From: Marsupella aquatica
Lineage: Eukaryota; Plantae; Marchantiophyta
Reading direction: 5' to 3'
Assembly: GCA_973895155.1 (NCBI GenBank)
Contig: OZ316892.1
Coordinates: 124,001 to 188,000 of the forward strand
Length of the DNA stretch: 64,000 nucleotides
Shown: one piece after another, positions 19,220 to 48,192 of the stretch
Numbering within the stretch: position 1 is the first letter of the stretch
Layout of the letters: each line of letters begins with the position of its first letter
The notes under the pieces: generated by a model
What the model was told of the DNA's origin: nothing
Databases searched by the model: none
Seen by the model: only the letters and a program-made list of their open reading frames with translations
Program-made: the position numbers and the translations under genes

Positions 19220-19536
19220 GGACATTGTGTTTGGGAGCTGAAGGAGCGGAGAAGAGCGATGAGAGCGGTGAGAGCTTGAGCATCTCACATTTGCATTCCG
19301 GGTTTACACAAGTTTAAGATTTTTGGTAAATACGTCGTCGGTCTCATTGGATCCAGGAGCGTCAGAGCTTTTTCTCGACACCTTTTGCGCTGTGATAGAT
19401 TGCATTCAGACTAACTTATGAGCATTTGAGGTAGGACGATGTTGTAGCGGAGTCTCTGGTCTTGGTAGTCTCAACACAGACATTCATTACGGTCCTTGGA
19501 TCCTTTGCGCTCCCTATTCTGAAGCAACATTGAACT

Positions 19537-24900: not shown

Positions 24901-26123
24901 TCTGCCGTGACTTCCTTTGGGGATATAATGAGAATGGTGGACAGAAAATTCCCCTGGTAGCGTGGAAGACGATGGCACGGCCTAAGGTGGACGGTGGCCT
25001 TGGGTTTAAGGACTTTCGCAGTCACTCTGACGCTTTACTCTGTCAATGGTTCACCCGTGCTCTGGATTCGCAAGTCTCTGAATGGGCTAGGCTTTTTGGG
25101 GAAAATTTGAGATTGGCAAAATGGAGGAATGCTAAGCGCATAAGGAGAAATAGATACTCTCTCTTTGATCGACTATTGCTCTGTTACCCTGGTTCTTTTG
25201 GTTGTCTCTTTTACACGGGTAGTTTGTGGAAGGCTTGGGAGTCTCTTCGGCTGCACCTTATACTCTCACCGGGCGTTTTTGGCGTGGCATGCTGGTGGAG
25301 CGTGGAGGATGTTGTGAGATGCCTGGAAGGTTTTCAGCACCTACAGGATGACATGATTTGCTCCATTATCAAGATGTGCGGGAGGATTGGAGAAGGACGA
25401 TGTCGGATTTAAATGGTTCTCATGACTCAGTTGTTCGAACCTTTTCTACTAAAATTGCAAGAATACGTGGTGCTGACGTTGCAACGAGAGAGCTTTGTTT
25501 AGCATTCGTGGACAAAATCAAAGGTATTGTGGATTGCTTTGGAGATCTCCAAGTTCGTGCCACCCAATGGTGTTGGTCTAACAAATGTGAACGGTTGAAG
25601 AGCTTCACCCTGTCCAATGCACGTATGTATCAGCTGATTCGACCCAAAGGCTCTGATTCTCTCAAGCTCAACGGGATTTGGAGCATTTCTTTTTTTGACC
25701 TCGAATGGAAAAATTTCTGGAATGCTCTATGGTCATCTGATTTACCGTTAAAAGGCCGCTTATTCCTTTGGAGATTAGCTGCTCAAGGGTTATTCACTGG
25801 AACACGAGCTAGAAAGATTGGTAAAGGAGATGGAAGTTGCCTACTGTGCACCAATGTTCTTGAAACAATTCCTCATCTTTTCTTCACATGTCCCTTCGCT
25901 AAGAGGTGCTGGCAGCTAGCTGGGTGGATTTTTCCGGGAGCCACTTCTTGGAGACATTTGAATTTATTCTCTGTCTTGGAAGTCACTGGATGCACCAAAA
26001 TTGAGAGAACCATTCGGGTTTTGTGGTTTACCACGTGCTATGGACTCTCTGGTTGGCACGGAATGAGCAGCTTTTTAATCGTGTCAACAGTAGAAGATTT
26101 AATTTGAATCTACTCCTTTCAGA
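21961..26123 (+). pseudogene. LINE ORF2 (APE endonuclease, RT, zf-RVT), disrupted; tail at 39449-39618
   Basis: SWNVCG, LQE, GDFN, SRLDR, SDHDP; KAPGP, WRPL, LDFEKAFD, RG/VRQGCPLSP, LFADD; CLLC..ETIPHLFFTC. Several stops and frameshifts. Confidence 0.92.
23949..24337. mobile_element. 389-bp MITE with 25-bp perfect TIRs and 4-bp TSD
   Basis: GGTCAAGTGCAAGCTAGAGGGGTAC at 23949 and its reverse complement ending at 24337; TSD TGGT (23945-23948, 24338-24341); splits the RT motif RG|VRQGCP; internal GGAAGTGTGCCCAA-like repeats. Confidence 0.9.
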
Positions 26124-26828
26124 GGGTATGATAGCCATGACAGAAAACAGAAAACCTGTTACCAGGGGTTTATTTTCTGTTAACAGGGAAATTGTACCTG
26201 TTCCCAGTAAGCTTGTCCCTGTTACCAGTTTTGCCTGAACCATAACGTGCATATCCACCTCTCTAAGGTGCATATCCACCACTCTAATGGCATAATTTTT
26301 TGGGGGGCAATAAAGTTTAAAACAAACAATTATTTTGTGCCATCCGATGGATGAAGTGTACTATCAATCCTCCATTGACACAACCATTTATTGTAGAAGA
26401 TAAAAAACATGGTATTAGGAGTGTGCCTAAAGAAACATTCATGCAAATCAATCTATTTTCATCGCCAAATAGTGACCCTTAGAGTGGGACCCACCATAGC
26501 ACATGTCAATCGTGGAGTCCAAATCAACCCAATCTAAAGGAGTTGATTAAATGGACCTTGTAACGTCACAAACAAATGACAAATCACATCCTCGAGGCTT
26601 TGAAGACAGTAGACAATTTAATCAACTTACACATTTTAAATAAAACAAGAGGTCATTCTTCCACAATGCACGTACATAATGAAGCAATGAATATCCGGTT
26701 TCCTAGAACCAGCGCCCGACGCTAACCAACAAAGTCTCAATAAACAACTAAAATATCCGTTGGAAAAAGACAAAATAGGGAATAACCGTTATATTGAACG
26801 ACGACCTATTGGGCAGTTTCGATCTCTC

Positions 26829-29800
26829 TCATAAGCCATTCAAGTTCTGCCTCTCCAGCACAAGCCTGACTTTGCCTAAAGTCAAAATAGGTTGGCTACA
26901 AAGAGTCGACTCCTCAATCTCAAGTTTGAAAACATTTATGTACACCCAGTATAGATGTTTGCAAGGCATGTACGACTTGCCACGCGAATGTCGGAGGAAG
27001 AAGTCTTCACAAGAGCAAGCGGGGAAGATACAGATTTGGACGAAGTATGTGCTTGGTGATCGATGGTTCTCATGGGTTCGAATTCAAAATTGCTTTCCAA
27101 AAGCATTTCCAGTCTGAACATTCCATTCCCCATCCAAACTCATCACTTCTTGTCGTGCAGACTCCATTTGCTTCGTGTGACCCACAGTGAGATTAGACCG
27201 AGGCCTTGAGTTCCTCCCATTCCGACTACCAAGTTGGAGATTCGGCTCCAAAAACCTTATTGTTTCTGGTAACATGTTAACATTTATCCTGAGGTCAAAA
27301 TCAGATGGCGCAGATCGACTCAATCCTGTTGTTCGCGCTAAGACAAGTCCTTGCTCTTCCAGGAATGTAATTTCAGAAGGAGACAGGCTCGTACCCTTCA
27401 AAATAGGCAAAATGTCAGGAAAAGGAGGAAGCTTCTGAACACCACGACGCGGATGACTCTTGTAACATGCTTGGTTCGGGCAAAACCAAATCATTTCGGA
27501 GATGGGTTCGCCCCTGAAGAGACAATGGCCCTTCACGACAATTCCGACAACACCTTCAGATGAATGGAAGCCAACCTTCTTGATACGATTTCGACACTCA
27601 TCGCGATCCGAACTCCCATTCAGTGTACCATTGCATTGTGGACCTGCTCCATACTTCGATGTCCGTCGCAACTGCCACTGCCCCGGAGGGACATCCTTCT
27701 CTAGCACAATCGTGCGTGGAAGTTGATTCTGAAGTGTTGTTGGGGCACTGAGTGGAGGTTTTGAGGATCTTGTTGTTCGGGTTGTTTGAGGAGTATAGTC
27801 CAGTGAATCAGTATCACTCTCTGATGTGACCATACCTGAGAGATTCACCGCCTTTGTGACAGGATGATCAGAACTTGAGGGAATAGAAGAAAAGTCAGTT
27901 CTGTTCAGGTTCTTCCTTTTCAAACCACGAGTATTTGGTGTGGTTATTAGAACGGTGTCATGCCGATGGGAATCTTGTGGAGAGACAGTCCCAGTTGCAT
28001 GTCCCTTTTTCTTCATTGACTTCGTCATTATATCTCCATTCAGGGGAGTACTTCTTTCCAAATCGAATTCTGTTGCGTTAGATAGAAGCATATTAGTCGC
28101 TTCTTCAAACAATCTTGGCGAACCTGCTTGATCGGCGGAACGGAATGCCAATTCCCATATAGTTGGCCCCTTCCCCTGGTTCAAGCCTTTACGGTATGCA
28201 CTGTATCCGGCAACTTGAGATAGAGCACGGTTTTGGTCAACTTCGCAAGCTTCATAAAGACCGACCTTTTTCTTTGTAGCCGAGGCTTTCATGGACGCAT
28301 GCCTTGATTCTGACCCTGTATAGTTGGGGATCAAGGCACCTTCCTCAGCGCTTTTGCTCTGCCATACGAAAATGTCAACCGTAAGTAGTATTCTATTACC
28401 AGCGCCCGGCGCTGGCAACATAAATATGTAGAACAGGCCTGAAATACAATTTCAATGTTTAATACTGAATTCTAACTACATATTGGCTTCAATTTCTTGT
28501 ACTACTTGTTTTGACGTGTATGGAGAAAATAACCAGCGCCTGGCGCTAATATGAAGTTGATGAACATTACAGTCTAGATAGATGGATGCCTTACCACTCG
28601 AATAAAATTGCCCCACTGGCGCCAGCGAACAACCCACCAAGATATCCAGCTTTGCAGCATCTTCAGCTTTCCGGGGACACAGTTTCCTGATTGCCACCAC
28701 ACAACAATCTCTCGGGACACCCGGTATGCTGCCACAAATGATGGAGCATTTCTCAGTTTCTCCCAAAGTCTCCGATGCTCCGATTGACATTCTTCCAGTA
28801 CTCCTTCCTTGGAATGACGATGAAAAGATTGATAAAAGTGAAATGCATCAGAGCGCTCCCTCTCCGGGTCCGGGTGTCCACCAAAAAAAACATTTCGCAC
28901 TGCATTCCATCCAGCTTGTGCATTGTCGGCCATAAATCCTTAGATGACAACCTCCTGAAGTTCATTTTCTTTGAAAACCTCAATCATCACCCTCCATGCC
29001 TTTTCGAAGGACTCAGTGTCTTCACCTTTCAACTCGCATGTGAAAATTGTACACAGTGCACGGAAATTGTGGTCGTAGACGTGTGCGCTGAAAGTAAACC
29101 AATCCGTGGTGACATGCTGCATCACATCAAAACTTACCCAGGCTCCTTCGAGTCTTCCACCTGGTTGCATCTGCCTCAAAAGATCCACACCGGAACCGTG
29201 ACCTTTCATGGTCATTTTAAAGATGTGAGGCCTATCGTTCTGACATCCCTGACCTGGAAGCAAATACCTCTGGAGAAACGACACATGAATCCTCCTCTGC
29301 ATTTGCGAGAGAAAATCTAATTCACCCCGACCTTTTTGGTCTATCCTAACGCTCCGACAAAGAGATGCAAACTTCTGCGGAGTGGAAAGGACCATCAGAG
29401 ACTTCCATATTTCAGTTTCTTCGATATCGACCATGTCGTCAACATGTTCGCAGAGAGATTTCACTAAGGATTCTCTGTAGCAGAATTCAAGATCCCTGCC
29501 GGTTTTGACAGAGGATTGGCTTCATGTTTTTTTTTAATTAGATCCTCAGCTATCTTCTCCGCACTCCTACAGAAGGTTTTTCTACCTGGATGGTTGTGCT
29601 CACCTATATGAATTGCCAGGCGGGACATATGACTACATGTTTCCGCATCAAGTAATACTTGGGGGTACATGTAAAACAAACGGGCAGGGCAGTACTTCAC
29701 ACAAAAAGGAATCTGTTCGCAGTAATGACAAACAACAGCTCCCTCTTCGATGAAAGATCCCACAGCATACTGACCACTGAGCTTTGGAGTACCCTGCCAT

Positions 29801-30582
29801 GCCTTAGCATTTGCCTTCTTCTTCCTTTGGAAATAGTCGCAGGACTTGTTCCTGCATTCAATGAATCCCGTACAGGTAACCTTCCCAAACTGCCAAAGGT
29901 TTTTAGGATGAACAGTTGCAGTTGTTGGAAATATGCGTGTCCAAATGTAACAATCTTTGGCACGATCCATGTCCATAAGCCTAGAGCCTTTAGAGAGCAT
30001 CTTATCAATGGGCGGCAACTCAAACACGACGTTACCATTGTACTTAGTTGGCAGACAGGACACTTGTTCATGCCTGAAATCACCCGCTGATATGAACCAT
30101 GACAACTCACTATGACCAGTTGATTTGAGTAATGTATCCATCGCACTGCGCCAGTACACGACCTCCAACTGCTTAGAGCTTCCCGAAGTCTCAGCTTTCA
30201 CGACAGCAGGGAGCGGGCTTTTCTTCTTCGACAGTGGACTTAGAGTACGATCTCCATCCTCACTTGAAGAAATCTCAACCACATCACATGGAACCGGCGG
30301 GAAACTGGACAGTCCTGCATGCTGTCTTAAACAAACCGAGTACGAGATCCCTGCGTAGAGATGCCAAAACCGTTCACCGTCATCGACATTGAACGTTGCA
30401 GCATCCTCGATATCATCAATGGATTCAAGCTCTCGAACAATAGCCTCAATGTCATTCATCTTCAAATCAAATCTCCCGCAGAGATACCTCTCCCGGACCT
30501 GCTTGTACGTATCTTCCATGGGGACGGGGATAGTCACAATATCTTTAGAACCGAATCGAGAAAGAACGATAGACCGAGACAT
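26829..30582 (-). pseudogene. Mutator-like transposase A: GCM/WRKY-like Zn domain, DDE core, Cys-rich linker domain, C-terminal SWIM
   Basis: CTGFIECRNKSC...CHYC...CPA...HIGEHNHP; SFDVM, MADNAQAGWNAVRNVF..DAFH (C/D-x2-H), GSESRH; CSCEDF...PCKHLYWV. Intron 28359-28594; frameshift near 29464; stops at 28940 and 27084. Confidence 0.85.
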
Positions 30583-30860
30583 GGTGAACAAAAACAAAAA
30601 CCGAGGGCTATAGCATTTGAAAGAAGAAAAGTTCATGGTATTGTTCAGCTTATATCTGTCGAACCTGGGAATTTGACGTTAACCGATCCGTTTGTATACG
30701 ACATAAAACATAGACGATGGAGGATCCGTTGGCACCATAAATGATTTTTGTCGTTTTTTCCCCGAGAAGTCCGGATGTCAGACACGAACATATTGCTAAA
30801 AAGATCATCAACCTTACTTAAACAGACCATAAGATATGACAAGGTATTGTCAAATTTTAG

Positions 30861-31283
30861 TAGCGCTTGGCGCTAACTAAAATACGCCACTAAAAATGTG
30901 TCTGAAATCTCAACATTCCAAACTAGCGCCCGACGCTAGTATAGAATAAATTCCCTGAAAATGAACATTATGACCACATACCAGGTGGTAATTGGGAATA
31001 AATGGTGCCTTCAAAGGATGGTTTTGATTGATTATGGATGATAAATGAACATTTATACTAGCACCGGGCGCTAGTATTACATTTGAGAAATATTTCTCCG
31101 TAAACGATGTACTGAAGGATACTTTAATAAAATATGGGGGTGGAAAGGCCAAAATTTATGTCATAGCTCCTTCAAAAAAGACCTCTAAATTTCTTCCAGT
31201 TTATACTAGCGTCGGGCGCTATTATAAGCATACTCTAAATTGTTCACCTTGATGGTCATCATTAATGCTAGCGCCCGGCGCTA
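30861..31283. promoter_or_regulatory. Cluster of five TAGCGCCNGGCGCTA palindromes in the divergent intergenic region of element A
   Basis: Copies at 30861, 30924, 31059, 31207 and 31269; function inferred. Confidence 0.75.
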
Positions 31284-31671
31284 GTATTGATATGATGTTA
31301 GGAAATGTCTTTAATGGTAACATTCAACGGTAACTTATGACTTCCGTGTGTGTTACGCATCTTCTACCGTTTGATTTTGGTAATTAAACCTTTCGTATAC
31401 AGACGTTGGAAACCGCCAAACATCAGAGCTAATGGCTTTCCTCTAGGTTATGTCATCCTCCCGCTAGAATATATTCCACGTTCAGAGATGATTACAGTTC
31501 CATAATTTCATTGTACGATAGTTCGTACGCTTCTAGAAGGAAGACGATGGAGGTATTCCCCTCTTTTTCCAGAGGGTATAGTGCGGTTTCTGACCAGGAG
31601 CGAGCTTATTCTGAATCTTCGCAGTCTTCATTTACTGGTTCTATACACGTCGTGTAACTCGTTCCTCAAAG

Positions 31672-34600
31672 TTGTTGCTGCTCACTTTTGTCAGCGGTGT
31701 TTTGGGTCCAAATCCTTTGCGAAGAAAGATGGACAACGTAGACACAATTGCGATCCAGGATGTTGCGGATTGCGCGCTTGCTGAGACTGATCTCATTTCG
31801 AAATATGTCATGTCTTTTGGAAAGGATTCTCGTGGATTTGACAAGGAGCCGCCTCGAATCCCTCTGTGTCGATTGGTTCACATGGAGGTGGTTCGTACTC
31901 TGCCGAAAGACAGCTCTTCCATCGAGAAGCTGAAAGACTCTTTTCGTAGTATGGGTTACAACTCTTCGATAGGGATGCATTTCTATGTGCAGCCAACGGA
32001 TGAGAACGGAATTGTTCTGACCTGTACCCAGGACATTCGTGATTCATGGGATCCAATATGGCAATTGGAGAACGAGAAGTTTGAGGCTGAATGCGAGGCT
32101 GACCCGGATTTTCTCGTCTTGAAGGATAAGATGTTCTCTGTATTCGATGGAAATCACAGGCTGTACTCCTGGACGCTTGTAACAGAGGAGAACCCGGACA
32201 ATCCAAAATATCATCCTCGTGTGCTCTGTACAATATTTAAAGGAGACAAGGGATCTCTCATTGAAATTGAGGCAGCTATGCACACCGTGAATCAGTAAGT
32301 TCTCATGATTTCCAGTTCTTTCCTTAAATCTTGCGAGTGCTGTATTTACTAGCGCTCGGCGCTGCTTATACATGAATTGTTTTTCATTGACTCTTACTCT
32401 CAACGTTTGTTCGTGTAGGCTTGGCCAAGCAGTTGTAGAGCCTTCCTGGATCCTGGATGCGGACAGAATCAAACAAATTCTGGCACATGACCTTGAGTAT
32501 TACAGTAAACTGATTGACCCGGGTAATTTCAAGAAGTTTGAAAGCATTCAGCTGAAAACTCGGAAGGGGTCATGGTATATGAAGAAGATGCCACAAGAAG
32601 CACTTGTTTACATTCTTTGTGAGAATAAGATAAAGTCGTACTCGCATCAATTCAAACTCGACATGGAGGCAGCGGAGGCTCAAGGGAGTCCATGGTCGGC
32701 GGACGAGATTTCAAAACGGCATGCGGCCATGATGAAAGACGCAACCAAAGATTGGGCAGTGAAGTCTTCAAAAATTACGCCCTTATTAAGTCCTAAATTT
32801 GAAGATTTCCTCAGTACATGTGCAGAAATGTATGCTGTCATAGAGAGAAACAAGAGAGAGAAGAAGCCTGACACCGTTGTATGTACAATGGACCGCACAC
32901 GATTGTTCACCGCTGTTTCTGCTCTAGACCCAAAGTTATGAAGCACTTTACTTGTGGCACATTGCAATCCTGAGCTGCGAAGACAGTTTTTTCACCCAGC
33001 AAGTGTTAACGATGATCCAGTCAAACAGTGGTGCCACACTTGGATCACTTGGAATAGTGTGGAGGGAATTGCTGCTGGCATGTTACATTCATGTCTACGT
33101 GAAGTTGAGCAAACCATGCCCGCGAATAGATTGGAAGAGTGGAATTGTAGTTCGTTTGATGATCTAGTTCAGTTTGTTACAAATGAATTCAAGAGATTTG
33201 GTGATTCCGTGAAGAATAAGTTCTTTCACACTATGTGGCCTTCAAAGTACCCTGACAAAGAAGATTACACCCAGAGAAACCAGAAGCGAGCGAAGAGGTT
33301 TGTGTATAGGTTCTACATGCACATGGAGGTAACCAAACCTGATTACTTCTGGGCATATCCTGCAACTTTTATGAAGTGGATTTCAATAAGTGAAGATGAT
33401 GCCTTGGCTGATTTGTACTCTATGTACCCCACGGAGGGCATATTTCCTCCGAGACCAATGACAAAATGGGAGAGAACTCACTGCCCCTGGTATCTAGATA
33501 CAGATAGATGGGATTCTCCTTTTGATCAAAGGGAAAAAGATGCCTTCCATAAGCTTTCAAAGTCTCAGATGCCAGCAAAACTTGTGTCCGACATGAAGCA
33601 GGGTCTACTTGACGATGTAGACAAGTCTGCCACAAACTTGCAAACTATCTGTGAAACAACTGTTGTGCATGTGGACCGGAGTCGCAAACCTCGCGCGAAA
33701 GCCAAAGCGGAGCTAGCAGCACCGAGCGAGTCTACTAAATCTGGAAAGAAGAGTAAGTATTGCTATCCATGATTTTGCCAGCGCCAGGCGCTGGCAAAAA
33801 ATATTCTGTTGAGGGTATTCTCTTTCTTGGTTATTAGGCTTCGGTTGCGACTTAAGTGAATTGCATTTGGTTAGCGCCAGGCGCTAGCTTCTTTCAATAC
33901 TTTAAAAGTACTTATTCTAACTACGACCTGGTTATATTTTAGGAGGGAGGAAGTCTAATACGGTGGGAACGGGAGATACAAAAAAGGATGCTACACCTGA
34001 AGTTTCCAAGGCAGACACGGGAGCTCGATCGGACCCCATTACTCTAGTCGACAAAGGGAAGGTTATAGTTCCTATCGACGCCACGAGTACCAGGAAGAAA
34101 CAAAAGAGAGCTGTCGAAGGTGGACAATCTTTAAGGGAGAGTGTTACAGCTTCTGGTTTCCAACGTGAAGTTGGAAACTTCAAAACAACTGTGTCTCGCC
34201 ATTGAATGGTTGAGACAAGCCTTTCTGAATTTTTTGACTCGATGTTCAACAAGGAGGAGAAGCCCGAGTGGGTTAGTGATGTGGAGAAATGGGGAAAAGA
34301 CCTCGTTAAGTTGGGATTTAAAGAGAAGGGAGTTGTTCGGGGGGGAAAAGTAAGATCGTTTGGAGTGGATGCCGGCTTCATTTACCTACCGACCGGGTTC
34401 AAACCATCTATCATTGATAAGAAGGTTCCTAAATGGAACATTTCAGATCACTCAATGGCTAGATCTTTTTTCAAATCCATGGATCCATTTTTATTAGATG
34501 ATGGGTTCCTTGTAATTCTACACAATGGGGAGTACGATCCCATGTTGCAAGTCATTGCTGCCTGTCAGGAGTCAAGGAAATTTCAGTGTATATGCTCACA

Positions 34601-35633
34601 TAATGTTGTGATGTCTGACCCGATGTATGCGGCAAAGACAGACCGAGAGATGTTTACCCTCAGGCTCGACATATTTGGCCGAATTAATGGAAAATGTAAA
34701 ATTCCCAAAGACCCCAAATTTCGGCCGTTGTCCATCAGTGAGGACCCTTCGGTTACCAATTTGATCGGACTCTCTTCGCTCAAATCAAATCCATTCCCGC
34801 AAATGGAGTTTGTTGGAAATGCTCATCTGTTTGTGGGTTTTATGCAATCTGTTATAGAGCTTGTCACAAGGCCTCGTGATATTTTTATGGATTGGACTGC
34901 TAGGGCTGGAGGCTCTTACATTGCTGGCAACTTCTCTGGACGATTTGTACTCGGGATAGAACACCGGAAAGAATTTATTGAAACCGCTTCAAAGGTTTTC
35001 ATGGATTTGTTGTCTCCCAAAGAGATTGCAGTGTTACCTCCACCTGTTCCTACTACCGACAAAAAAAAGAGAGATAAGCTTCGGTCGGTTTTCAATTTTG
35101 ATTCTGATGATGAATCGAGTGAAGGTGGAGAGGAACAAGGTACAAGAAACTCCGAGGAGGAAAAGGGAGAGCGTCGTGCAGCTGCAGATGAAACCGATAG
35201 TGATGACTCTTCCGAGTAATGTTCATAAACTCGTAAGCTTCTTTCTCCATTCCCGTCAATTCATAACATTTCTTTTGTTGTTTTGGGGAAAGGCGCCTTA
35301 CAAAATGGACTTTGTTATATCAGGTCAGAGTGGAATGCAAGGAGACGATTCAAACTGCGGAGGAAGATCGCGAGACACAACGTAGAAACATCGGAAAAAC
35401 CGTTTGTTCTTCAATCCTATGCAGAGAAAGCCGCAAGGAAAGCAGAAAGTGCAAGGACACTTTGCTGGGAAAACAAAGGTCTTCGGTTACGAAGGGGTGT
35501 TGACCAAAAGTTCATTAAACATCCTTATGTTGATGACTTCTCCCGCAGCCAGTACGTAGATGATGAGGCTATGTCCACGGACAGATCCCAGAGTACAGAT
35601 TCTGGTTCCGACTCAGAATCTTCGGAACCGTGA
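31672..35633 (+). pseudogene. Spliced ParB/Srx-like plus beta-class amino-methyltransferase-like accessory gene (copy A, about 1150 aa reconstructed; 5' end unresolved)
   Basis: IPLCRL...VRTL...SIEKLKDSFRSMGY...VFDGNHRLYSW (ParB/Srx); VDAGFIYLPTG (motif IV position) then VIELVTRPRDIFMDWTARAGGSYIAGNFSGRFVLGIE (motif X-I). Frame-preserving GT-AG introns 32295-32418, 33753-33942, 35216-35323. In-frame TGA at 32939 and 34203. Confidence 0.8.
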
Positions 35634-35904
35634 GAAATAGTGGGTAGTTGAGGCTAAATCTTTTAGTAGCGCCCGGCGCTTGCAACCTCTGTATTATCTC
35701 CCTCTGCTGAGGGTCCTTTTAAATTGTTGATTTCTCTCTACTTGTTGATTACTTTTGACTTCTGTTCTTTACAAGCGCCTGGCGCTCGCCAAATGGAATC
35801 TCTAAATGGCTGTTTAGTCTTTGTTGTTTCCTGTCAACGGTCATCGTCATTGGATACCAACTGCCATTTGGATTGTGTTCTTTAGTCAGTCGTCGGAAAA
35901 CTGT

Positions 35905-36275
35905 TGGGGACCATAGTTTCGGGATGATGATTCCATAGTTTAGGGACCGGGCGGAAGGGACGACTATAGTTTCAGTTTAGGTTTGTTCGGGACGACGAGA
36001 GTTGGGGACGTTGATAGTTGAGGACGACGATAGTTTTGGGAGGATGATAGAACGGGACGATAGAACGGGACGATAGAATGGGAGGGGAGACTTTGTTTCG
36101 GGATGATGATAGAACGTGATGATAGAACGGGACGATAGTTCGTTTGGGAAGACTTTGTTTCGGGAAGACGATAGAACGGGACGTTAGAGCAGGGCGATAG
36201 AACGGGACGATACCTATTACCAAGGCAAAGATAGTTTCAGGAGGCAATAGAATGGGACGATGATAGTTTGATGGT
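35905..36275. repeat. Degenerate tandem array of about 13-bp GGGACGATAGAAC units inside element A
   Basis: Repeated GATAGAACGGGAC / GGGACGATAGTT visible throughout. Confidence 0.85.
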
Positions 36276-36455
36276 CGTTTCGGAATGGTAGTGTACGCGG
36301 ACCTTTATCTGGCGTCTTAGTCTTCGCGGACCTTTCTTTGACCTTTGTCGGCTATAGCACTCGCGGACGACGTTCTTACGGGAGGAGAGTTTACATATTA
36401 GATCGGGATCTTTGAAACATGGCGAGTCAGTATGAGCCAATGGATTGGGAGGCAG

Positions 36456-38303
36456 TGTAGTTTGCCATAGAGAACCAAAAATCACATTTTAAAGTCTCTA
36501 AACTCGGTATTCGTTCCCTTTAAGAACAAGATGGGGTTGGTTTGATGTAATAAACTAAAAACAAAGCTTTAAGCTCTTGTGTCACACATAGTAATCAATC
36601 TTGACTACTTTAATCAGGTACTTTGAAGATCGCTCCACAGCGGTGAGTAGTTTTTGATGATAACTCAACATCAGATAACCTTCAATTAAGCAAAAGATTG
36701 CAATTAACAAAACACAAGGAAAAATCTCTCAGAGTATGCTTAAGGGAGTCTGGAATAGACCAAGGTTACTCCTTAGACATAAGTAATAATGGAATGACTT
36801 TAAGGGAATCCAAATCCACACGGCTTTTCAGATCTAAACTGCATACTAGAGTATCCTTTTAAAATGCCGGCAACATGTCTTGACCTTTCTTCCTAAGTGA
36901 TACTTAGTCAAGATCTAAAAGGATAAATACTTCAGCATTTAGATGGTACTAAGCAACATGAAGGTGGAAACATCATTTCCAATGCAACTTAAACTCAATG
37001 AGTTAACTCTAAGAACTTGTGAGATTACAATGTGTCACCAAAGCGGAATCTGACATTATAATTCACGAGATTCATAACTGAGGTTTTACTTCAAGTATTT
37101 GGGTTCCAAAATACAAGAAGGAGGTAAGTCTCTCCAAATGTTAAACCTGATCTCGAACTCATAGATTCATGATCAACTAGTTTAACACAAGGGAGAGGCA
37201 AAACTGCAAAACTTAACCATCTCTCTACACTAGGGGAAGAGGTATAAATAGTGATGAACTACAGAATAAGAGGTCACAGGGTCGAAGAGACATGCCTCTT
37301 CATACCCCTCAAAATTTTAAAATGGCGATTCAGTAAGTGAAAAGCCGGAAAAAATGGCTAAGTATGAACTCTTAAACTCTTAAAAACTTAAACTCTTAAA
37401 AACGTAAAAACTTAAACTCTTAAACTCTTAATTTCGGTATACTAAAAATTGAGTAGATTCAACTATTTTTAACTTTCTACTCCTGGTTCGGAAAACTCTG
37501 AAATTTTTCCAGTAGGGTTTCCTAGGTACAGACTACAGCCTAAAGAAGTATGACAGCTTCTAAAGCTCTAGAACACATTTCTAAAAATCAGATAAGATGC
37601 ACTACTCTAAAAACTAACTAAGAACACTTAGAGACTTCTTCAAGCTTGCTGTCGGATGTCCTCTGGTTCTAGTAACTCCACAAGGGTAACAATTCGGTTC
37701 TGGGTAACCTCTATCAGCTTAGCTTGGCGTGGGGATCCTCTGGAGTATGGTAGGCACCTCAGTTGTCTCTCAGGATACATCAAAGGCATTCTCTTCATCA
37801 AATAACAGGAATCTATACGAAGAGCTTCTCTGTACATCCCGATCACATCATAGTTGTTGCAGGTGGCAGCATATACTTGGGGATAGTGATGCAGAAACTC
37901 ATCACTATTCATCATCCTGGAATAGAAGGGTCGAAGTCTCCATTTGACATCTCTGAAATACCGGTTGAAGCTGGGCAGAGTTTGAGAGGTAAGGTGGAAG
38001 AGAAGTCAGTAATGAGCGCCTATGTCTTGCATTCCTTCCCTTTCAAGGTGAGCTCTTCATCCGTTGTGGAGTCCCGTTGAACTAGTTGTAAGATGTCACG
38101 ATCACAGAGTCGCCAAATCTTAAGGTGTAACTCGTAAAGCAGTGAACTAGTAAACTCGTAAACTGAGTTTACTCGTAACTTAGGAACTTAGTAACTTTGA
38201 ATGCTGTTTTAGTTACAGTTAGCAATAATTGCAGTCTAAACACCGTAAAAAAATTTAAAAATTTTCAGTTTCTTCATGCTTTTGGAATTACCCACTACTT
38301 ACA
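36456..38303. mobile_element. Solo LTR (1848 bp)
   Basis: TGTAG...TTACA termini with 5-bp TSD GGCAG (36451-36455, 38304-38308); shares blocks with 44397-55044. Confidence 0.8.
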
Positions 38304-38308
38304 GGCAG

Positions 38309-38720
38309 CTTTTCATCCTCTCTCGTGTGCGTCCGGAAGAGAGCCATTTCAGCTCTTTTGAATCGCGGATGGAGACTGAAGAAACTGAAACTTCCACTTT
38401 TCGGAACCGTCATGCTCTCCCGTATGATGAGGCTATTAGTCCTGGAGAGAAGAACATCCCTTGGATTGTCGATTCCCCTGCGCCTCCGTTCTCTAGTCGG
38501 TTTTCGTCTCACCCGGGAGTTCTTGTTGATGGTGTACTCCCAATCGATCGAAGAGTACAAGAAATGTTCGGGCGAGTTGATTTTAAGGACAGTAATATTC
38601 CTAATGAACATTTTACGAGGGTTGTTCATTGAGGACCTTCAGAGGGATACGTTCGTTTGCGTGGTCTCGGCTTCAAGAAAGATCGGCGGAGAGAAGAAGC
38701 AAGAGTAGATGATGATTGAA
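38309..38720 (+). pseudogene. Possible small third ORF of element A, interrupted by the solo LTR
   Basis: Frame of ORF 38276-38632 continues past one TGA to about 38720; no recognisable motif. Confidence 0.3.
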
Positions 38721-39780
38721 ACTCGGAAAGCTAGATGGAAATTTTGTTTTGCTGATCGCTTTAAGCTAGCGTCGGGCGCTGCTAAAGTTTTCTGGATTTT
38801 GTGGCATTGAAGTCGACCTCAGCTCTAGCGTTAGGGTTTTCCCGGTTGTCTACTATTTAGGTTTTGGCTAGCGCCGGGCGCTATTGAAACGACAACGGAT
38901 TTTGTGGGAGGGAATGGATCTTGACTATGTTGTCTGGGTTTGGACGCATCTTGTCTCCAAGAAACGACTAGTTTTCTAGTTAGTTTTTGGCTAGCGCCGA
39001 GCGTTGTTCATGTATTAGTCAAAAACCTCCGACGGTGTTGACCGTGACTTCATGGATGGGATTTTTAGGCCAGATTGTTGATGTTGATAACTGCATTTTA
39101 TCACTTAAGCTGAGCGCATTTTCTATTTTGCGATAATATATGCGAATGTTTTTTCCGGCCTTTCTTTTCTACTTGTATTTGTCTTGGTTTTTGTGTATCT
39201 CAATTGGCAGCCATCTTTTATGTTTCAAAAAATTGTTTCCGTGTTGTTCTTTTATTTATCACGAGGGTTTGGTGGTTTTGTTTTCTATTCTTGTACTTTC
39301 AACTGGAGATTTTGAGACCTTTTTTTAAGATCACTGTTCACGACCATCCAAACACTGTTCACTGGTAACAGCTCCTTTTAACTGGTACCAGAATCTGTTT
39401 CCTGTTACTGTTATCTGTTTGCTGTCGTTTGTAAATTCCCCCTTTCAGATATGTTAGACTCCTTGCATGGCCTCTGTGAAGCCTCGGGTCCCAGTAGAAA
39501 ACATACTAGATTACTGCGAGTCAAAGAATTAGTCCGTCAGGAATGTCTTAGGTGGGTTACTCGTCCAGACGCATGGCTTTTTAGTAGAAGCAATACTTGT
39601 TTATGCATTCTACTTTAGTTGGCTAGGAACACTTCTTTGTGCCTTTGCACTTAGGTGCTCATTATGGCCTCACCTGGGTCACACTATGCTGCCCACGCTT
39701 ATGTTGCCCTGTTGGGCCCCCCTTCCCGTGGGTTTTCGCGGGTTTCATTTTTATTTCAAAAAGAAAAAAGAAAGAAAAAA

Positions 39781-42700
39781 AATGCTGGCGAAAGAAGTCC
39801 TCACAAGAGCAACAAGGGAATACGCAAATCTGTACCCAATAAGTGTTTGTCGTCCTTAGATGAGCGTGTGTTTGGATGAGTGATCGTTTCCCATATGAGT
39901 TCCCCAAGGAAACGTCCAATTTTGTGATAAGAGTCATCATTTCCTTCGCAGCAGATTTGATCCTTCTATGGTATTCCTGAGTAAGATTTGATCTGGGGTT
40001 CATTGGGCGCCCATTCCTAGTTTGAACAGGGATGTTGATTTGTGCCATATTGGTCTTCTCAAGAAAAACATCAATATTGATTCTCAAGTCAAAAGGCGTA
40101 GGGTTGGCAGGCATGCTTTGGTGGTGTTGTCTGGAGATTGCAACACCCTATTCTTCCAGGAAACGTAACTCCAAGTTTGACAAATGTGTTCCTTTTAGTA
40201 TTGGCAAGGAAATTGGATAAGGAGGTAGGTTAGCGATGCCTTGACGTGGGCGGCTTTTCCAACAACTGCCATTGGGGCAAAACCACACAAACTCGGCATG
40301 AGGTTCACTCCTGAACAGGCGATGTCCCTTCGCAACAATTCCGATCACACCAGCATTAGAAGGATATCCAACCTTCTTAATCCGGTTTTGACACTCATCA
40401 CGATCGCATCTACTTGACAATGTCCCGTTACACTAAGGACCAGGCCCGAGTCTTGAAATTCGACGAAGATGCCAAGACCCAGGTTCAACGTCCAACTCCA
40501 AAAGTGACGTGTCAGGGAGGACTGGAGTTTGGTCCAAAGAGATTTCTGGTAATGTGGAAGATTCCTCACCTGGACCAGAAGCAGATGCGTCCGGCATGTC
40601 ACTCAGGCCCTCACTCCCAGTCAAATTGATCGGTGTCTCAGGAACACTTGGTGGAATATGAGAAAACTGAGTCGAGTTCAGATTTCTCCGTTTCAAACCC
40701 CGTGTATTCGGTGTTGTTATCAGAATGGTGTCATGACAATGGGAGTCTTGTGCCAAACATTCCCTATCGCTGGACCTTTTCTTTTGATAGATTTGGTTAC
40801 AAAATCACCGTTCAATGGAGTACTCCTCTCCAAATCAAATCCCGCCGCATTAGCTAGTACGTAGCAAATTAGAAGCCTCTTCGCACAATCGAGGGGATCC
40901 AGCCAGGTCTGTTGAACGGAAAGCTAGTTCAAATACCGTAGGACTTGTCCTCTATGTAACCCATCCCGATAGGCAGTATAAGTAGCAATTTGAGAGATTG
41001 CACGATTGTGGTCAATTTTACAACCCTCGAATAATCCGACAATTTTCTTCCCTTGCCAAGCTTTCATGATACCATGAACTGCCTCAGATAAAATGCAATT
41101 AGGAATCATCCCTCCTTCTTGTGCACTTTTGCTCTGCAGGACGGCCAGAGTTTGTCAAATCTCAAAATCTATATTTGGAAGATATGTTGATATTCTTCAA
41201 CAATATGTATGAATTAAAGGTAGCGCCAGGCGCTAGTATGGAAGTGTCTATTCAGTAAGTGAAAAAACAGTGATACTTACAAGTCAAATAAATTTTCCCC
41301 ACTGCCGCCATCTTACAACCCACCAAGAGATCCATCCCTACAGCATCCGAAGCTTCCCGAGAATGCAATTGCCAGATCTCCACCACAAATCAATTTCTCG
41401 GGAAATCCTGTAAGCTTCGACAAACATTGATGCATTTATGAGCTTATCCCAGAGGAGGCGATGCTCAGAACGTTTGTCTTCAAGCACTCCTTCGATAGAA
41501 TGGCGGTGCAAAGATTGGTAAAAATGAAAAGCATTCAATCTCTCTTTCTCCGGATTTGGATGGCCCCCAAAGAAAACGTCTCTGACCGCACGCCACCCCG
41601 CTGAGCATTATCAACCATGAATCCATGAATTTGAACATCATCTACCCCATTTTCTAAAGCGACCTCGATCATTAATCTCCATGCTTTCTCAAGAGATTCA
41701 ATGTCCTCCGCTTTCAGCTCCCACGTAAATATTGTACATAAAGCTCGATAGTTCTGGTCATAAACATGGGCGCTAAAAGTACTCCAATCTTTCGACATTT
41801 GTTTCATGACATCAAAACTCAACCACGCACCTTCAAGGGGTCCACCCTTTTTCATTTGTCGCAACAAATCTACTCTAGATCCATGCCCTTTGATCGTCAT
41901 TTTGAAAATATGAGCTCGGTCCTCCTTAGAGCCTTGCCCTGGAAGTAGATACCTTTGAACAAATGGGAACCTGACATTCTTTTGCATCCAAACCAGATAT
42001 TCGAGGTCTTCTTGCCCGGCCTGATCTTTCCTGACACTCTTAAACAAGGCAGAGAACTTCTACGCAGTTGAAACAAGCATAAGTGATTGCCAAATCTCAC
42101 TCTCTTCCATCTTCAAGATGTCATCGATAGATTCATCTAGTGCATCCTTAAGAGATCCAGTGATCGCATTTTTCAAAACACTAGGCAAGGAAGAAGGATT
42201 CTTCAAATGATCTTTCTGAATCTCTTCGACCGCTATCATCTCCGAACTTCTAGACCAGACCTTTTGACACAGATGGTTATGGACACCCATATGCACTGCA
42301 AGGCGTGACATAAGCTGCATTGTTGCCAAATCCAGGAGAACTTGTGGGTACATGTAAAACATTTTTGCGGAACAGGAGTCCAAACAGAACGGAAGTTGAA
42401 GACAATACCAACAAACAATCCCTCCTGAATCAATCAACTTTCCTGGACAATGTTGGCCTCCCAACTTGGGGGTCCCTTCCCACGAAATACAATTCCAACC
42501 ATTTGTTCTGGTATAAAACTCACCTGATTTGTTTTGGCATTCAAGTGATCCGCTACAGCTGACTCCCACATCTTCTTCAGCAAAACATTCACAGAAGTAG
42601 GAAGAATTCGAGTCCAGAGATAGCAATCCTTCGAACGGTCCATGTTAAGGAGACGCTTCCCCTTTGAACCCACACAATCGACAGGCGGAAGCTCAAATAT

Positions 42701-43297
42701 GACATTGTCGTTGTAAGTTTTGGGAAGAAATTCTACTTGCTTGTGCTTGAAAGTCTCTGATTGTACAAATCGAGATAGCTCACTTTGACTAGTCGATTTC
42801 AGAAGGGCGTCTAACGCGCTCCTTCTATAAACTATAGGAAGAGAAGGAGATTTAAGAAGCTTGTCACCTCCACTATCTTTCGTTGAGGTACTACATTGAT
42901 GCATTGGAAATGAATTCTTTAACAAATAACATTCTTTGCGCTTGATGTTCCTAACATCAATCGGCAATTGAGAGACAGGGAAAGAGTCATTGCCATCAGA
43001 CGTGAGGTCAATGACCTCTGTTGGTGCATCCCCCGTCTCTAGTTTCACTACTTTTCCTCAGAGGAAAAGCGTGTACTCGACACCGCAGTGCAGTTCCCAC
43101 CATTTTTTACCAAAAATATAAAAATAATTCACTACCCCCTTGGCAGCTGTCCCTAAGCTTTCAATGTCTTTTCTCCTAACATCAAACCTTCCGCAAAGAT
43201 AATCTTCACTAACACGCTGATTACCATCTTCGTTAGTCATAGGAACGCTAATCACGTCTCCCATTTCAGGACATTTTACCCTAATAACCCGTGACAT
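39781..43297 (-). pseudogene. Mutator-like transposase B (frameshifted; C-terminus at 19047-19219)
   Basis: Collinear with transposase A: YLCGRFD, FELPP, DRSKDCYLWTRI, CSGSLECQN, HMGVHNH, SFDVM, GFMVDNA, AFHFYQS, LSEAVH, VWFCPN, CSCEDF. Same intron (about 41133-41280). Confidence 0.85.
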
Positions 43298-43514
43298 TAT
43301 GACAAAATGGCAAAATGGTAAGGGTGTTTCCAGCCTGGGTTTATTATTTCCCTCAAGTAAATCATCAAGAACGAAGAAACCACACACGAACGCACAAAAT
43401 ATTTAGAACTTTACCGTTCACTTAACGGATAAGTTTGAGATAAATGGCGACGGATGACTGTTGAAAACAAAATTTTTCCGTTAATTTAATGGATATTTTC
43501 ACAACAAAGAATAA

Positions 43515-43838: not shown

Positions 43839-45442
43839 TTAATGTTTATCCTCCGAGTTGTCTATCCAACGGATATTTGTAATGGTAACTTTATGCCTGT
43901 GTGACCATTTTTACCTCTTGAATGAATGTTAATTACAAGATTCTTCGTTAGATTTGAGTAACCACGTCAGTACTATATGCCAACTGTCCCTTTCTCTTTG
44001 GTTTGATTGCTCGATTACCTGATATTTTTCATCATGGAACATTCATATTTAAGTCAGTTGTCGGTCTTTTTTGGATCTTTTCCTGTCAAAGGTCAATTTG
44101 ACAAATCTGATCTTTTTGTGTGATTTGTTGTCGTGTCATTTTGTTGCGGGAAAATGATCTCCATACTGGTTGTTTCGGACGTGGGTCGTATCTATCCGAT
44201 TCCAGCAGAACATTGCAGACCTTCATGAGTGGTTGAGAACTCTCCAAATTTTAGGGCCAAAGACTCTTTATCTAGAGACGGACAACACTTCCCCGGGTAA
44301 TTCTCAAACATTGGAGACATCTTTTGCTGGTTCTGTTTACACACAACGCGTTACTCGCTCGACTGCATCACATTCACTTCAGAACTCTGCGTAGACTATC
44401 GTATGCTAACAAAAGCAAATATCATCGAATATATGCTAAAAACTCGGTGTTCGTTCCCGTGGAAGAACAAGAATGGGATGAAAAGATGTTTTAAAGTGTT
44501 TTGAGTGGTTTAGAGATGGTACTCAACATCTATAAGAAAAATAGAATCTTAAACAAAACACAAGGAATTAATAAAATAAGAACAAAGTGACATTTGCTGT
44601 ACAACAAAATCTTAGAGATTTTAGAGGTATAGTTTAGCAATATTTAACTCCGTCACCATGTCTTAAGAAAGAGCTATGGCATTATTTGAGACGTTGATAA
44701 GTCAAACATAACCTTGCTATAACTGCTCTCTAGGTTTCTATCATAAATCTATGTTTAAGAAGTGTATATGCTCACAAAACCCAAGATAAGTTTCGGATTG
44801 TGTGTATAGTAGTGTGTCATTAAAATGCCGGCAACATGTTTTCTTCTTCAACGATGCGCAATTCCAAAGAAAAACTAATGCACATTCAGTATACCACAAT
44901 GGTACTTCAAATCCGTGAATTAAGAATGTCGCTACTTCTTAATCATATAGATTTCTATTTCTTGATTTAATGCAATACTTATCTTCCAAAGATAAGTCCT
45001 TCATGTAAATACAGAAATGGACAACAAATGTTGTAGTTTGGATTAGGCACTGACCAACGGATCTTCTAATACATTCCACAAACTGTATTTTTATGAGTTT
45101 TACTTCTTACGGTAATTGCTACATGCATTACCATACAAAAGAGGGGTAGACTCCTAGCACAAGTAATCAAATTCCAAGGTATGTAAATCTTCCTTGCAAA
45201 ATTGCATTACATGTACAAGGGACAAAACTCCAAGATGAGGAGATGCAAATAACTATCCTCACTGTCTCAAAATGAGATTGGTATCACAATAAGTACATGA
45301 GATCGCCCACAGGCTAAGGAGAATGAAGAGACATGCCTCTTCATTTCCTAAGTCTAAACTAAGTAAAGTAAAAGTCAACTTTGACTAAGGGATAGTCAAA
45401 TGGTCAAAGCTAAGTAAAAGTCTACAAAATAAAATACTAATC

Positions 45443-45940
45443 TCATACTGTAATAGGAGGAGGGTCGACTACAAGTAGAGGGAGGCGAGCTACATAACCA
45501 AGGGCTATCTTCCCTTTGGTCCTCTGTCCCTTCAAATACTGTCGACGGAAAAGGTCCTCACGGTAACGAATCAAATGAGGCTCACTGGTCTTCCGAATGG
45601 GATGTCCATCCGGTCTGATCCAAACAAAGTAATCTGATGGCCATGGAATGTCTGGAGCTGGAAGAGGGAAAGGTGCTATGACCTTTCTACAATGATAAAC
45701 CCAACTCCAAAGGTCAGGAGTCTCAATCGTGGGTAATCTCAGCTTGTCGATAGGTAGCCATAGAATACCACGAGAAATCGGAACCATGTCGTAGGTGTGT
45801 GGAAAAGGAAAAGACTCACGACCAAACATAAGTGGAGGTAAAGGAGGTGCAAGAGGAGTGCGTGCGTCGATGAGTGACGTAATCATCCTATCAAACTGGG
45901 CGGTGTCATGAGGTTTCCATCCTAAAGGAGGAATCCTCAT
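45443..45940 (-). CDS. 165-aa Pro/Trp-rich ORF inside the solo-LTR-like element
   Basis: Clean ATG ORF in otherwise stop-rich sequence; no motif recognised. Confidence 0.4.
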   Translation of the reverse strand: MRIPPLGWKPHDTAQFDRMITSLIDARTPLAPPLPPLMFGRESFPFPHTYDMVPISRGILWLPIDKLRLPTIETPDLWSWVYHCRKVIAPFPLPAPDIPWPSDYFVWIRPDGHPIRKTSEPHLIRYREDLFRRQYLKGQRTKGKIALGYVARLPLLVVDPPPITV

Positions 45941-48192
45941 GTTTTGTGAAGGAAGTTGAAACCAATTTTTGCTTCTAACTTGGGCAAGTTGACTTGACTT
46001 GAGCTAACTTGACCAATGTGAAGGAGGAAGTAGAGTTATGAGGGTCAAGGTAGGGATGAGGTCGAGCCTACCCACCCTTGTTACTATTGTGGGGTATGTT
46101 TTTCATTTGTGACCAGCGATTAAGTTATCATTTGGCGGATTGGCGGAATGGAGGTTGCTTGCTCAACAAGCAAGGTATCTAGGGTTTTGGCGACATGGTG
46201 ACCAGGTTCATTGAATACATGGAGGAGGTGACCAGGTTCAAGGCATGTAAGAGGGTTTGGTCCAAGTGCATCAGTTTTGTGAGATATGGGCCAGATTCCT
46301 AGTTTTGTGAAATAAGGACTAGATTCATTGAACCTATATCAACGGTGGATCTTGGTTGAGTCAATGGATGAATGGATAGGATTGAGGATGAGGACGTGCC
46401 TTAGGGTTTGGAGGAGGTCGAGGTTTTTTCGAAAGTGCGAAGCCTCATTTGGTTACAAAGTTACAAAGGATGGTATTTTGGCTCATTTTTGACCCTTAGA
46501 TCTTTTTGATGGATGATCAAGGGCTGAAAATTGTCGAGGACTTAAACCATAAGTGGAGGGCTTGTGCCTTGCCCCAGGCCTTCCCACGAGAGTACTAAAG
46601 AGGAGAGTTCGAAGGGTGGGCTCTCTCTCACACCGTGATGCTGCTAAAGTGCTGCCGCTTTTGGCAGTTTTTGAGTCTTTGAGTAAGTTTTGAATAGGTA
46701 GGAGCGAACCTCTTGAGGGGAGCTCGAGCATGAGGCATGAGTGAAGGGGGAGCCCTCCTCCTTGGCCATGGCCTTAGGATTTTGAGGGTAGGAGATGTAG
46801 AGGCAATTTTGTGAAGAGATAGATGGAGTAGAAGCTTTGAATGTGAAGAGATTGAGTTTTGTGACGGTTTTTCTAAGGATTTGGAGAGAGGTTTTGAATG
46901 TAGGAGAGGCTGACTCGAAGCCTTAGGAAGGAGGTAGGATGTGAGTAGGAAGTATAAGGAGCTTGCATGAGAGATTGCCCACAAGAAGGCATACTCGAAT
47001 GTAGGTTTGTTGCTTCAAGTTTTGAGGAGAATGGACTTGTAGGAGATTTTTGAAAGCTTAGAGGAGATGTGACCTAATCTTGTTGAAGCTTGGGAGTCTT
47101 GCATTAGAGATGGCTCACTAAGAAGGCCTACTCTCTTGTAAACTCCTTGACTTGAAGCTTCGAAAGTAGATTTGGTTGAAAGAAGGAAGTATGAGAGAAG
47201 GAGACTAGGGTTTTGAAGCTTGGATAGGCTATGGAGGGATTTTGAATGCTTGGTTGATGATTAGACTTGGTGATGATTCATTTTTGCTAGGAGGGTCTTG
47301 CTTGTGACCCATGTTTTTACTTGGAGGCCATGATGCTACATGTGCCTTCTTGCTATGCATTTAGAGGAGAGGTATCCTCGTTTTTGAGATGTGTGTTGAT
47401 GCCTTGCTTTGGCTATGAGTGATGGAATGGTTAGAATGAATGTCTTCATGCCATTTTCAAATGTTGTTGTGAGCTTGAAGGTGTTTTTGAAAGTAGATGG
47501 GTTGAATGAAGGTACTTTTGAAAGTAGTTATTATGCATGAGGGAAGTTGCAAGAGTAAAGAGTGAAGGCATTTTCGATTGATGGAATGGGTTGTTTGTGG
47601 ATTATACTTGGTGGTTCTACTAGAGGAAGGGACTAAGGTCAATTCCATGTTTGTTAAGGAGTTTGTTGACCAACCCTAGGTCACTTTTCGAAAGTAGTTT
47701 CCCATGTTTTGAAAGTTGGATGTTTGAATGGTGCATAGAGATGCCTTGCATACCTTTGGATGTCCCACTTGTCTTAGCCACAACCAAGAGTGACCCTTAA
47801 CTTGACCACATTGATGTATGCTTGAACTTGTGTACCTTAGAGGGTTGCAAGGGATTGTGTCCAATCAAGTGTTGGAAAAGGAATGGTGATCAATTGAATG
47901 TTGGGCTTAGACTTGTGAGGATTACATTGGGAAGCTTGAACTAGTTATTTTGATTGTGATTGGATATGAGTATGTAAATGGCTTGAGTTTCGAAAGCATG
48001 CTTGCTTGCTTGTGATGATGTGGATGAAAGGTTAGGGTAGATACTTTGTCTTGTTTGCAACCGTTTCTTATCTCAAGCAGCCATACACCCTGCGTGTCCC
48101 TTGAGGCCCTTTCCCACCTCTTTGCTTATCCTCAAGACAGCGGGAAAGACAAAAAGAGGCTCAATGTCGGCAATAGAAGAGACAATAGGAGG

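Follow-up and report, generated by a model that had tools for sequence, protein, structure and literature searches.

Why should a plant DNA transposon carry, head-to-head with its transposase, a spliced gene whose product is predicted to end in the fold of a bacterial-type DNA amino-methyltransferase? The question is posed by 64,000 nt of the Marsupella aquatica genome (contig OZ316892.1, 124,001-188,000; this whole stretch is the window, and all coordinates below are window positions), in which transposons lie nested one inside another and two copies of one element, A and the oldest of the nested transposons, B, each hold such a cargo gene. Our answer, to which we give somewhat less than an even chance, is that the cargo may encode a self-binding accessory protein acting like the VANC anti-silencing factors of Arabidopsis, its binding and its function both being candidates at present. 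The features on which the argument relies are these.

26124-39440: element A, putative Mutator-like DNA transposon, inserted into L1 3' untranslated sequence, just after ORF2
3923-60440: element B, older diverged copy, interrupted by nested retroelements and by A
26741-30584, minus strand: A transposase, with an intron near 28373-28594, broken by two stops plus a frameshift near 29470, 3' boundary approximate
39782-43299, minus strand: B transposase, main part; its SWIM exon resumes at about 19053-19244
31729-32294, plus strand: A cargo exon 1, putative ParB/Srx-like domain with DGNHR
32419-33752, plus strand: A cargo exon 2, encoding the roughly 440-aa central domain, stop at 32939
33943-35215, plus strand: A cargo exon 3, linker and domain of predicted beta-class amino-methyltransferase fold, its motif IV degenerate; in-frame stop at 34203
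35324-35633, plus strand: A cargo exon 4, conserved tail, in-frame splice
55075-59130, plus strand: B cargo gene, five exons, several stops and frameshifts
975-1550, minus strand: fragment C, a third and more diverged copy, with the exon 3 end, the last intron and exon 4

The original prediction, made from the letters alone, had described two elements bounded by target-site duplications and sharing one layout, with the cargo head-to-head with the transposase, and this description is confirmed by the duplications, by an empty site and by the arrangement in 2/2 full elements, linkage having been examined within the window. The termini of A (GGG...CCC) lie between CCTTTCAGA repeats with a target duplication (C)CTTTCAGA of 8 or 9 bp, B is bounded by TTACCAGA repeats as an 8-bp duplication, and X1 and X2 contigs derived from other L1 copies connect 26114 to 39441 with 9 letters in common. 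At its termini A has only the GGG/CCC ends plus short subterminal repeats (AACAG/CTGTT-type, 11 matches per end), and the inverted arms of B (3936-3959 and 60404-60427) are 24 nt long and 96% identical. Both target duplications, at 26115-26123 and 3915-3922, finish in CAGA, a possible target preference (n=2). The predicted 3' end of a third copy at 975-1550 was likewise borne out, with positions 1035-1304 on the minus strand matching exon 4 (38%, E 8e-12). Across 25500-40000, 30/30 bins were covered in 4/4 runs compared, out of a set of 6, by contigs whose likeness ranged from <90% to >99% (637, 503, 361 and 243 of 1744 X1 contigs by likeness class), and the family therefore has many copies of different ages; summed run depth gives no copy number, and the runs may include the window's own sample.

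The cargo gene of A, divergent from the transposase, comprises 1160 codons in four exons separated by GT-AG introns, with DGNHR at codon 140, YLPTG at 781 and MDWTA at 949, and it is interrupted by two stops (codons 363 and 721). In B the three intron positions of A recur, and there is a fourth intron at 57982-58159, a point at which many database relatives also break; the precise absence of this intron from A is likely an intron loss within a DNA transposon gene. Copies A and B are both broken by stops and frameshifts, as had been predicted. Between them, pN (non-synonymous differences) is 0.226 and pS (synonymous differences) 0.848 over 943 aligned cargo codons, compared with 0.233 and 0.803 over 847 transposase codons, where pS is saturated and columns in windows of <35% identity were left out, which lowers pN somewhat. 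By codon position, the two cargo genes are 72/82/39% identical and the two transposases 72/80/41%. The cargo is thus under strong purifying selection, and because pN/pS is alike for both genes this selection is as strong as that on the transposase.

To relate this gene to others, the methyltransferase region was compared by HMMER with 1.84 billion representatives, giving 82 diverged relatives. Names were found on 10 of the 20 relatives looked up (3 Calypogeia fissa, 6 Riccia sorocarpa and 1 Ceratodon purpureus), and none of the 20 bore a bacterial or algal name. Three relatives (P0020, P0088 and P0090) also match the central domain, and the exon-4 motif L[PQ]xYAE is present in five, near the C-terminus in the Riccia and Ceratodon members; this co-occurrence therefore supports a single polypeptide. 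The motif was found by a short motif search alone, an exon-4 profile having given no match among the relatives. In none of the relatives retrieved was the ParB-like exon seen. The central domain of A is 62% identical to that of B and 46% identical to P0004, a stop-free exon-2 open reading frame (ORF) whose limits match those of the exon, and the 1.9-kb locus L001 contains exons 1 and 2 with the same intron 1 as A. A metagenome scan yielded 0/18 candidates with a one-protein query and 1/304 with an alignment query, and a word-index search for full-length relatives with the methyltransferase region or exon 1 found none, which is weak evidence.

The original prediction missed a palindrome of consensus TAGCGCCNGGCGCTA, all 28 copies of which stand in the non-coding DNA of A and B.

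26711-39005: 16 palindromes, core AGCGCCNGGCGCT with <=1 mismatch, in A introns, intergenic and subterminal DNA
18895-60293: 12 palindromes in B non-coding DNA, at 18895, 18962, 41222, 43516, 43720, 43825, 57148, 57219, 58017, 58099, 60063 and 60281

Exact occurrences of AGCGCYNRGCGCT number 17 against 0.00 expected, and allowing <=1 mismatch gives the 28 palindromes against a null mean of 0.17 and a maximum of 2; base counts lengthen the palindrome to about RSTAGCGCCNGGCGCTASY. Non-coding DNA amounts to 4361 bp in A, where 16 palindromes lie, and to 3602 bp in B, where 12 lie; the 14,189 bp of coding DNA and the 41,848 bp of foreign DNA contain none. This partition was set after the palindromes had been seen, and it uses rough boundaries for the 44-55 kb insert. 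All 20 deviations from the consensus core read C-to-T or G-to-A, and 9 of them fall at two positions where the pattern permitted nothing else. The palindrome has been kept though synonymous sites are saturated, and when the non-coding DNA of A is aligned with that of B, little else is shared besides the termini and a block belonging to a possible third ORF. We rejected an origin of the copies as miniature inverted-repeat transposable elements, since identity in their flanks averages 0.30 and reaches 0.60 at most. The palindromes concentrate in introns and the promoter spacer, not at the element ends; the last cargo intron has none, intron 1 of B has a two-mismatch copy only, and the fragment C region shows no such array. 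The palindrome contains CG and CHG sites, which are contexts that plants methylate, as well as CCNGG and GCGC.

The C-terminal domain of the cargo protein is predicted to adopt a beta-class amino-methyltransferase fold with motif IV placed before X-I-II. Positions 58286-58588 of B match PF01555 above its cut-off (E 1.3e-8), and a model built from 71 aligned rows (pLDDT 92.8) finds M1.HpyAVI and CcrM by Foldseek at E 1.6e-12, superposing on CcrM with Z 19.2 (root-mean-square deviation, rmsd, 3.5; 212 aligned) and on bdelloid N4CMT with Z 17.1 (rmsd 3.6; 198 aligned), where the first unrelated row scores 6.9. The predicted fold and the permuted motif order are those of M1.HpyAVI, CcrM, M.PvuII, bdelloid N4CMT and Marchantia MpDN4MT1; these beta-class enzymes keep DPPY or SPPY (TSPPY in MpDN4MT1, which has no extra domains), whereas the cargo family has neither motif. 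The order of motif IV then X-I given in the original prediction is correct as to place and not as to catalysis; in an hhalign comparison with bacterial enzymes (97.6%) YLPT falls on SPPY. Canonical [DNS]PP[YFW] is found in 0 of the 41 rows (of 71) that cover motif IV, and a search for this pattern in all of P0005-P0091 found it absent. At the first position residues interchange freely (A 11, Y 9, F 8, D 7, S 3, C 2; n=41), and at the fourth T predominates (28/41). In bdelloid N4CMT, a change of SPPY to APPA abolishes activity, according to the part of the report available (PMC8885841). We conclude that the domain is likely a pseudo-enzyme, which may still bind S-adenosylmethionine (SAM) and DNA, because motif IV is degenerate in all 41 rows covering it.

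An active enzyme of non-canonical type, which would use SAM to place N4-methylcytosine (4mC), N6-methyladenine (6mA) or some other mark on the palindromes and so label its own element as proposed for algal proteins, is to our mind unlikely. In its favor, conservation is seen at motif I (D 37, G 31 and G 35 of 40 rows) and at the acid of motif II (E 30, D 4 of 40); copy A itself has an arginine at a motif I glycine, and position 34902 is G in all X1-X3 depth, which gives the glycine. The Riccia and Ceratodon rows, which branch outside the clade that has lost the motif, moreover keep the motif IV aspartate in 8/9 cases (DPPT, DLPS, DAPE), and the W-N-x-W of a conserved VPxWNxWD segment after motif IV might provide substitute residues. 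Against these points stand the absence of a canonical motif IV from every row that covers it and from P0005-P0091, and a 30-row clade that includes A (support 94) in which neither D nor N occurs at the first catalytic position. The quick tree that gave this clade omits four long bacterial ORFs, P0036 and any row that lacked motif IV or was poorly covered; 15 of its rows are less than half filled, its outgroups are all Bacteroidota-centred, and it is uninformative on the donor.

On the reading that we favor, the cargo protein, rather than the transposase or a host factor, would bind the palindromes in the introns and spacers of its own element, and would do so as a dimer. The ParB-like domain would load on or spread from these sites, and the likely dead methyltransferase fold would help to shield the element against silencing by host cytosine methylation, where occupancy or base flipping at the CG and CHG sites could block or read 5-methylcytosine. 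The original prediction had offered marking, protecting or assembling of the element as possible roles; marking by 4mC or 6mA has become less likely with the degenerate motif IV, and the protecting or assembling branch is strengthened because the palindrome array was found. A more detailed version is possible but on the doubtful side: a ParB-type clamp joined to a disarmed bacterial methylase might load at subfamily-specific palindromes of liverwort and moss Mutator-like elements (MULEs), spread, and shut out CG and CHG methylation, with protein and palindrome co-evolving. The locus L001 bears on this version. Its intron 1 (551-990) is filled by a degenerate tandem array of a 14-bp palindrome, AAGCC-N4-GGCTT, which occurs 12 times (null mean 0.1, maximum 2 of 500), and L001 holds no copy of the A/B palindrome within 1 mismatch.

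Several points weigh against the favored reading. The turnover of the motif is seen at one locus, where the pattern was picked after inspection and the array could be an unrelated tandem repeat, and L001 has no transposase within its sequence. The compartment counts depend on the after-the-fact partition described above. The SAM-binding motifs and VPxWNxWD are kept, which fits changed chemistry as well as a dead enzyme. Finally, a comparison of exon 1 with 31 chromosomal ParB domains, using a shallow 4-row query profile, gave no profile match.

The N-terminal domain was examined further, and its ParB/Srx kinship is best treated as a lead. DGNHR is invariant in the three copies A, B and L001; exon 1 matches TIGR03187 (DGQHR) at E 0.061 and 0.13, far below the cut-off; and its language-model neighbors in the Atlas (0.92-0.94) are clusters carrying DUF3723 (31-47% of members) or ParB_N (11%). 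Searches of Pfam, PHROGs, PDB and phages with exon 1 gave no ParB match (best phage tblastn E 6), viral contigs gave 0/167, and the canonical ParB GERR box is absent from the cargo protein. Two of 192 prokaryote-genome candidates were rejected as chance, the ORFs being uridine-kinase-like and membrane-protein-like by eye. For the central domain, no family was assigned by Pfam, PHROGs, NCBIfam or the Atlas, and its Atlas resemblance to penicillin acylases (0.83, with 79 features in common) was discounted. Of the multi-exon ParB/Srx-methyltransferase gene originally predicted, the splicing and, by model, the beta-class fold have held, and the ParB/Srx part comes down to a motif and weak matches.

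If the N-terminal domain is nevertheless a ParB-type clamp, it might act in transposition architecture, coating the element from parS-like sites and bridging its ends or aiding re-insertion with silencing unaffected, a role to which we assign a low probability. Such a factor would suit palindromic multi-copy sites, a ParB/Srx-like motif, terminal inverted repeats that are short and imperfect, and the finding that the nearest Atlas clusters with a family carry DUF3723, an accessory gene of Starships; the genetic role of mudrB also suggests a function of this kind. The sites, however, are concentrated away from the ends, in the promoter spacer and in introns, the GERR box is lacking, and the retention of a methyltransferase fold is left unexplained.

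It is quite improbable, in our estimate, that the palindrome is bound by the GCM-like domain of the transposase or by a host factor, the role of the cargo being unrelated. Transposases can be sequence-specific activators, as described in the available part of one report (bioRxiv 10.64898/2026.08.24.746577), and evidence in the window ties the motif to neither protein; but a different short repeat, of the kind that transposases more usually bind, is found at the ends of the element, and the cargo intron of L001 holds a different palindrome. That the cargo is a passively captured host fragment of Pack-MULE type, useless to the element, agrees with the broken state of both copies but is largely refuted, and very improbable, given a codon-position identity that matches the transposase, the same layout in A and B, and the 82 diverged relatives.

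As to the elements themselves, Mutator-like is the best call for their superfamily and is unproven. Mutator elements and MULEs are marked by target duplications of about 8-11 bp, a DDE core with C/DxxH and an N..ES.H-type motif, and N-terminal GCM/WRKY-type plus C-terminal SWIM zinc motifs. The transposase of A shows a GCM-like Cys/His region, a D..D..E core (DAFH, N..SE.H), a Cys cluster and a SWIM motif (C-x-C...C-x-H at 26832-27083), and A and B have in common the GCM-like Cys/His region, SFDV, M(A/V)DN, (D/N)AFH, N..SE.H and the SWIM-type motif; the GCM-like, DDE and SWIM labels are ones that we presume from motifs by eye. In B, the halves of the SWIM exon flank the L1. Pfam gave no MULE, GCM or SWIM match to the transposase, and a PDB sequence search returned nothing relevant. 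An hhalign comparison with 14 IS256 proteins was weak (E 0.004, probability 8%; reversed control E 0.26) and in register at the second aspartate. The stop at 28942 is a sense base in all X1, X2 and X3 depth and is therefore private to A. The Sola superfamily was dropped on account of the 4-bp duplication of Sola1-1_Ec32, and hAT, P and Zisupton, weighed because of the 8-bp duplication, were set aside on what we take to be their domain order. The part of the transposase that links the DDE core to the SWIM motif keeps a four-Cys cluster (27430-27640 and 40250-40420, both on the minus strand); by eye this cluster presumably resembles a PARP-type zinc finger, and it has no library match.

The architecture of the cargo is not new: it is a land-plant variant of a published algal transposon design, and one of the grounds on which the original prediction said that it would fall, prior description of this cargo, is thereby partly present (PMC12477816; bioRxiv 10.1101/2025.02.11.637652). 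These comparisons follow the parts of the cited sources that were available. In Ectocarpus, Sola1-1_Ec32 bears a 1104-aa gene for a ParB-like plus N4C/N6A methylase protein opposite its transposase, and this accessory protein has been proposed to bind and modify its own element (PMC12477816). Both systems have a two-domain gene of about 1100 aa on the opposite strand, here of 1160 codons and with a tentative ParB part, and the likeness is one of architecture, since Sola1-1_Ec32 has a Sola1 transposase, a 4-bp duplication and 282-bp inverted repeats and belongs to a brown alga. Red-algal Plavaka, Mutator (Chondrus) and Zisupton elements also carry methylase and ParB-like cargo genes (bioRxiv 10.1101/2025.02.11.637652). 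Among these, PAG2 and PAG3 of Plavaka resemble the present cargo in combining a PF01555 methylase with ParB-like mobile cargo, and inverted-repeat arrays adjoin PAG3; unlike here, they are two separate genes fused to SET and 2-oxoglutarate (2OG)-oxygenase domains, and the PAG3 arrays are tandem beside one gene, whereas the present sites are spread across all non-coding parts.

The closest functional analogy is with VANDAL elements, the Arabidopsis MULEs that encode VANC, in which an accessory gene is likewise accompanied by a short motif accumulated in non-coding DNA and differing between families. The motif bound by VANC21 is found in introns and in intergenic and terminal non-coding regions, and VANC6 recognizes another; these motifs, as given in the accessible text, are 8-9 bp, of one orientation and often in tandem repeats, and the function of VANC has been shown experimentally (PMC5735166). 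In our case the likeness in family-specific motifs comes from one other locus, L001, and no Pfam family beyond PF01555 was found on the cargo that would indicate kinship with VANC. DUF3723 (PF12520) is a conserved accessory gene of function unknown in fungal Starships, so far as the portions seen of two preprints describe it (bioRxiv 2021.12.13.472469, 2025.02.28.640899). It is comparable as a conserved transposon accessory gene, and exon 1 scores 0.94 to clusters carrying it, a lead; Starships, unlike the present elements, are tyrosine-recombinase elements, and the cargo has no Pfam match to PF12520. ParB-HTH-fused methylases of chlorophytes and chytrids and inactive DIRS1 methylase domains, in the sections consulted of a further source, are not this family (PMC4738411). 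A land-plant or bryophyte account of this cargo family was not found in the literature, Repbase and Dfam lying outside the search and possibly holding one.

The original prediction saw in the cargo a prokaryote-derived module. The bacterial-type fold agrees with that, and the remainder is less secure, as no bacterial or phage donor was found in the searches made and all 10 named relatives are bryophyte. What is new here is the family-wide loss of the catalytic motif together with a candidate, possibly subfamily-specific, binding palindrome. To our knowledge, few transposon-encoded counter-silencing proteins have been described. VANC is the sole listed case shown to bind and modify its own element in the part available of one survey (bioRxiv 10.1101/2025.02.11.637652). 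If the favored reading is true, the cargo would be an anti-silencing device convergent with VANC, made from prokaryotic parts, and a land-plant branch of the algal cargo module. ParB-methylase cargo in algae has so far been a domain-level guess. The bryophyte family makes it testable in a tractable lineage: it offers a candidate site, a second subfamily whose different palindrome amounts to a natural exchange, and copies that have lost the catalytic motif to differing degrees. Either outcome would be informative, whether the methylase is dead and serves to shield or read DNA or has a catalytic chemistry that is new.

The remaining features of the window concern a possible third gene and the nested insertions.

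38364-38710, plus strand: possible small third gene remnant in A; a 19-codon block is shared with B at about 59840-59895 (E 2.7e-5)
about 19222-39780: L1 with Pfam DUF4283, endonuclease and reverse transcriptase, separating the halves of the B SWIM exon
36456-38303: solo long terminal repeat (LTR)-like insert, TG...CA, inside A, duplication GGCAG
3983-18758: Gypsy-type element inside B, with 4079-bp LTRs that are 99.9% identical

The third-ORF block in the 3' region of A and B (about 59840-59990 in B) suggests a small decayed third gene, and the remnant at 38364-38710 has no Pfam match. The target duplication of the L1, at 19208 and 39781, is alike in 12/14 letters. The Gypsy-type element has an open polyprotein of 2140 codons, and each of its LTRs contains a 623-codon ORF (5079-6950 and 15776-17647) to which Pfam gave coiled-coil noise only; a protein-coding ORF within a very long LTR is unusual. 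The insert at about 44400-54900 in the intergenic spacer of B, the limits of which are approximate, holds long coiled-coil or proline-rich ORFs (48193-49134, minus strand; 50323-52017 and 52018-53736, plus strand), none above a Pfam family cut-off, and is probably one or more non-autonomous LTR elements. A broken Copia-like reverse transcriptase and RNase H, labeled by eye with a weak RNase H Pfam match, lies at 61514-62921 on the minus strand, and short GATAGAACGGGAC-like tandem repeats occupy 35960-36290 in A, downstream of the cargo gene.

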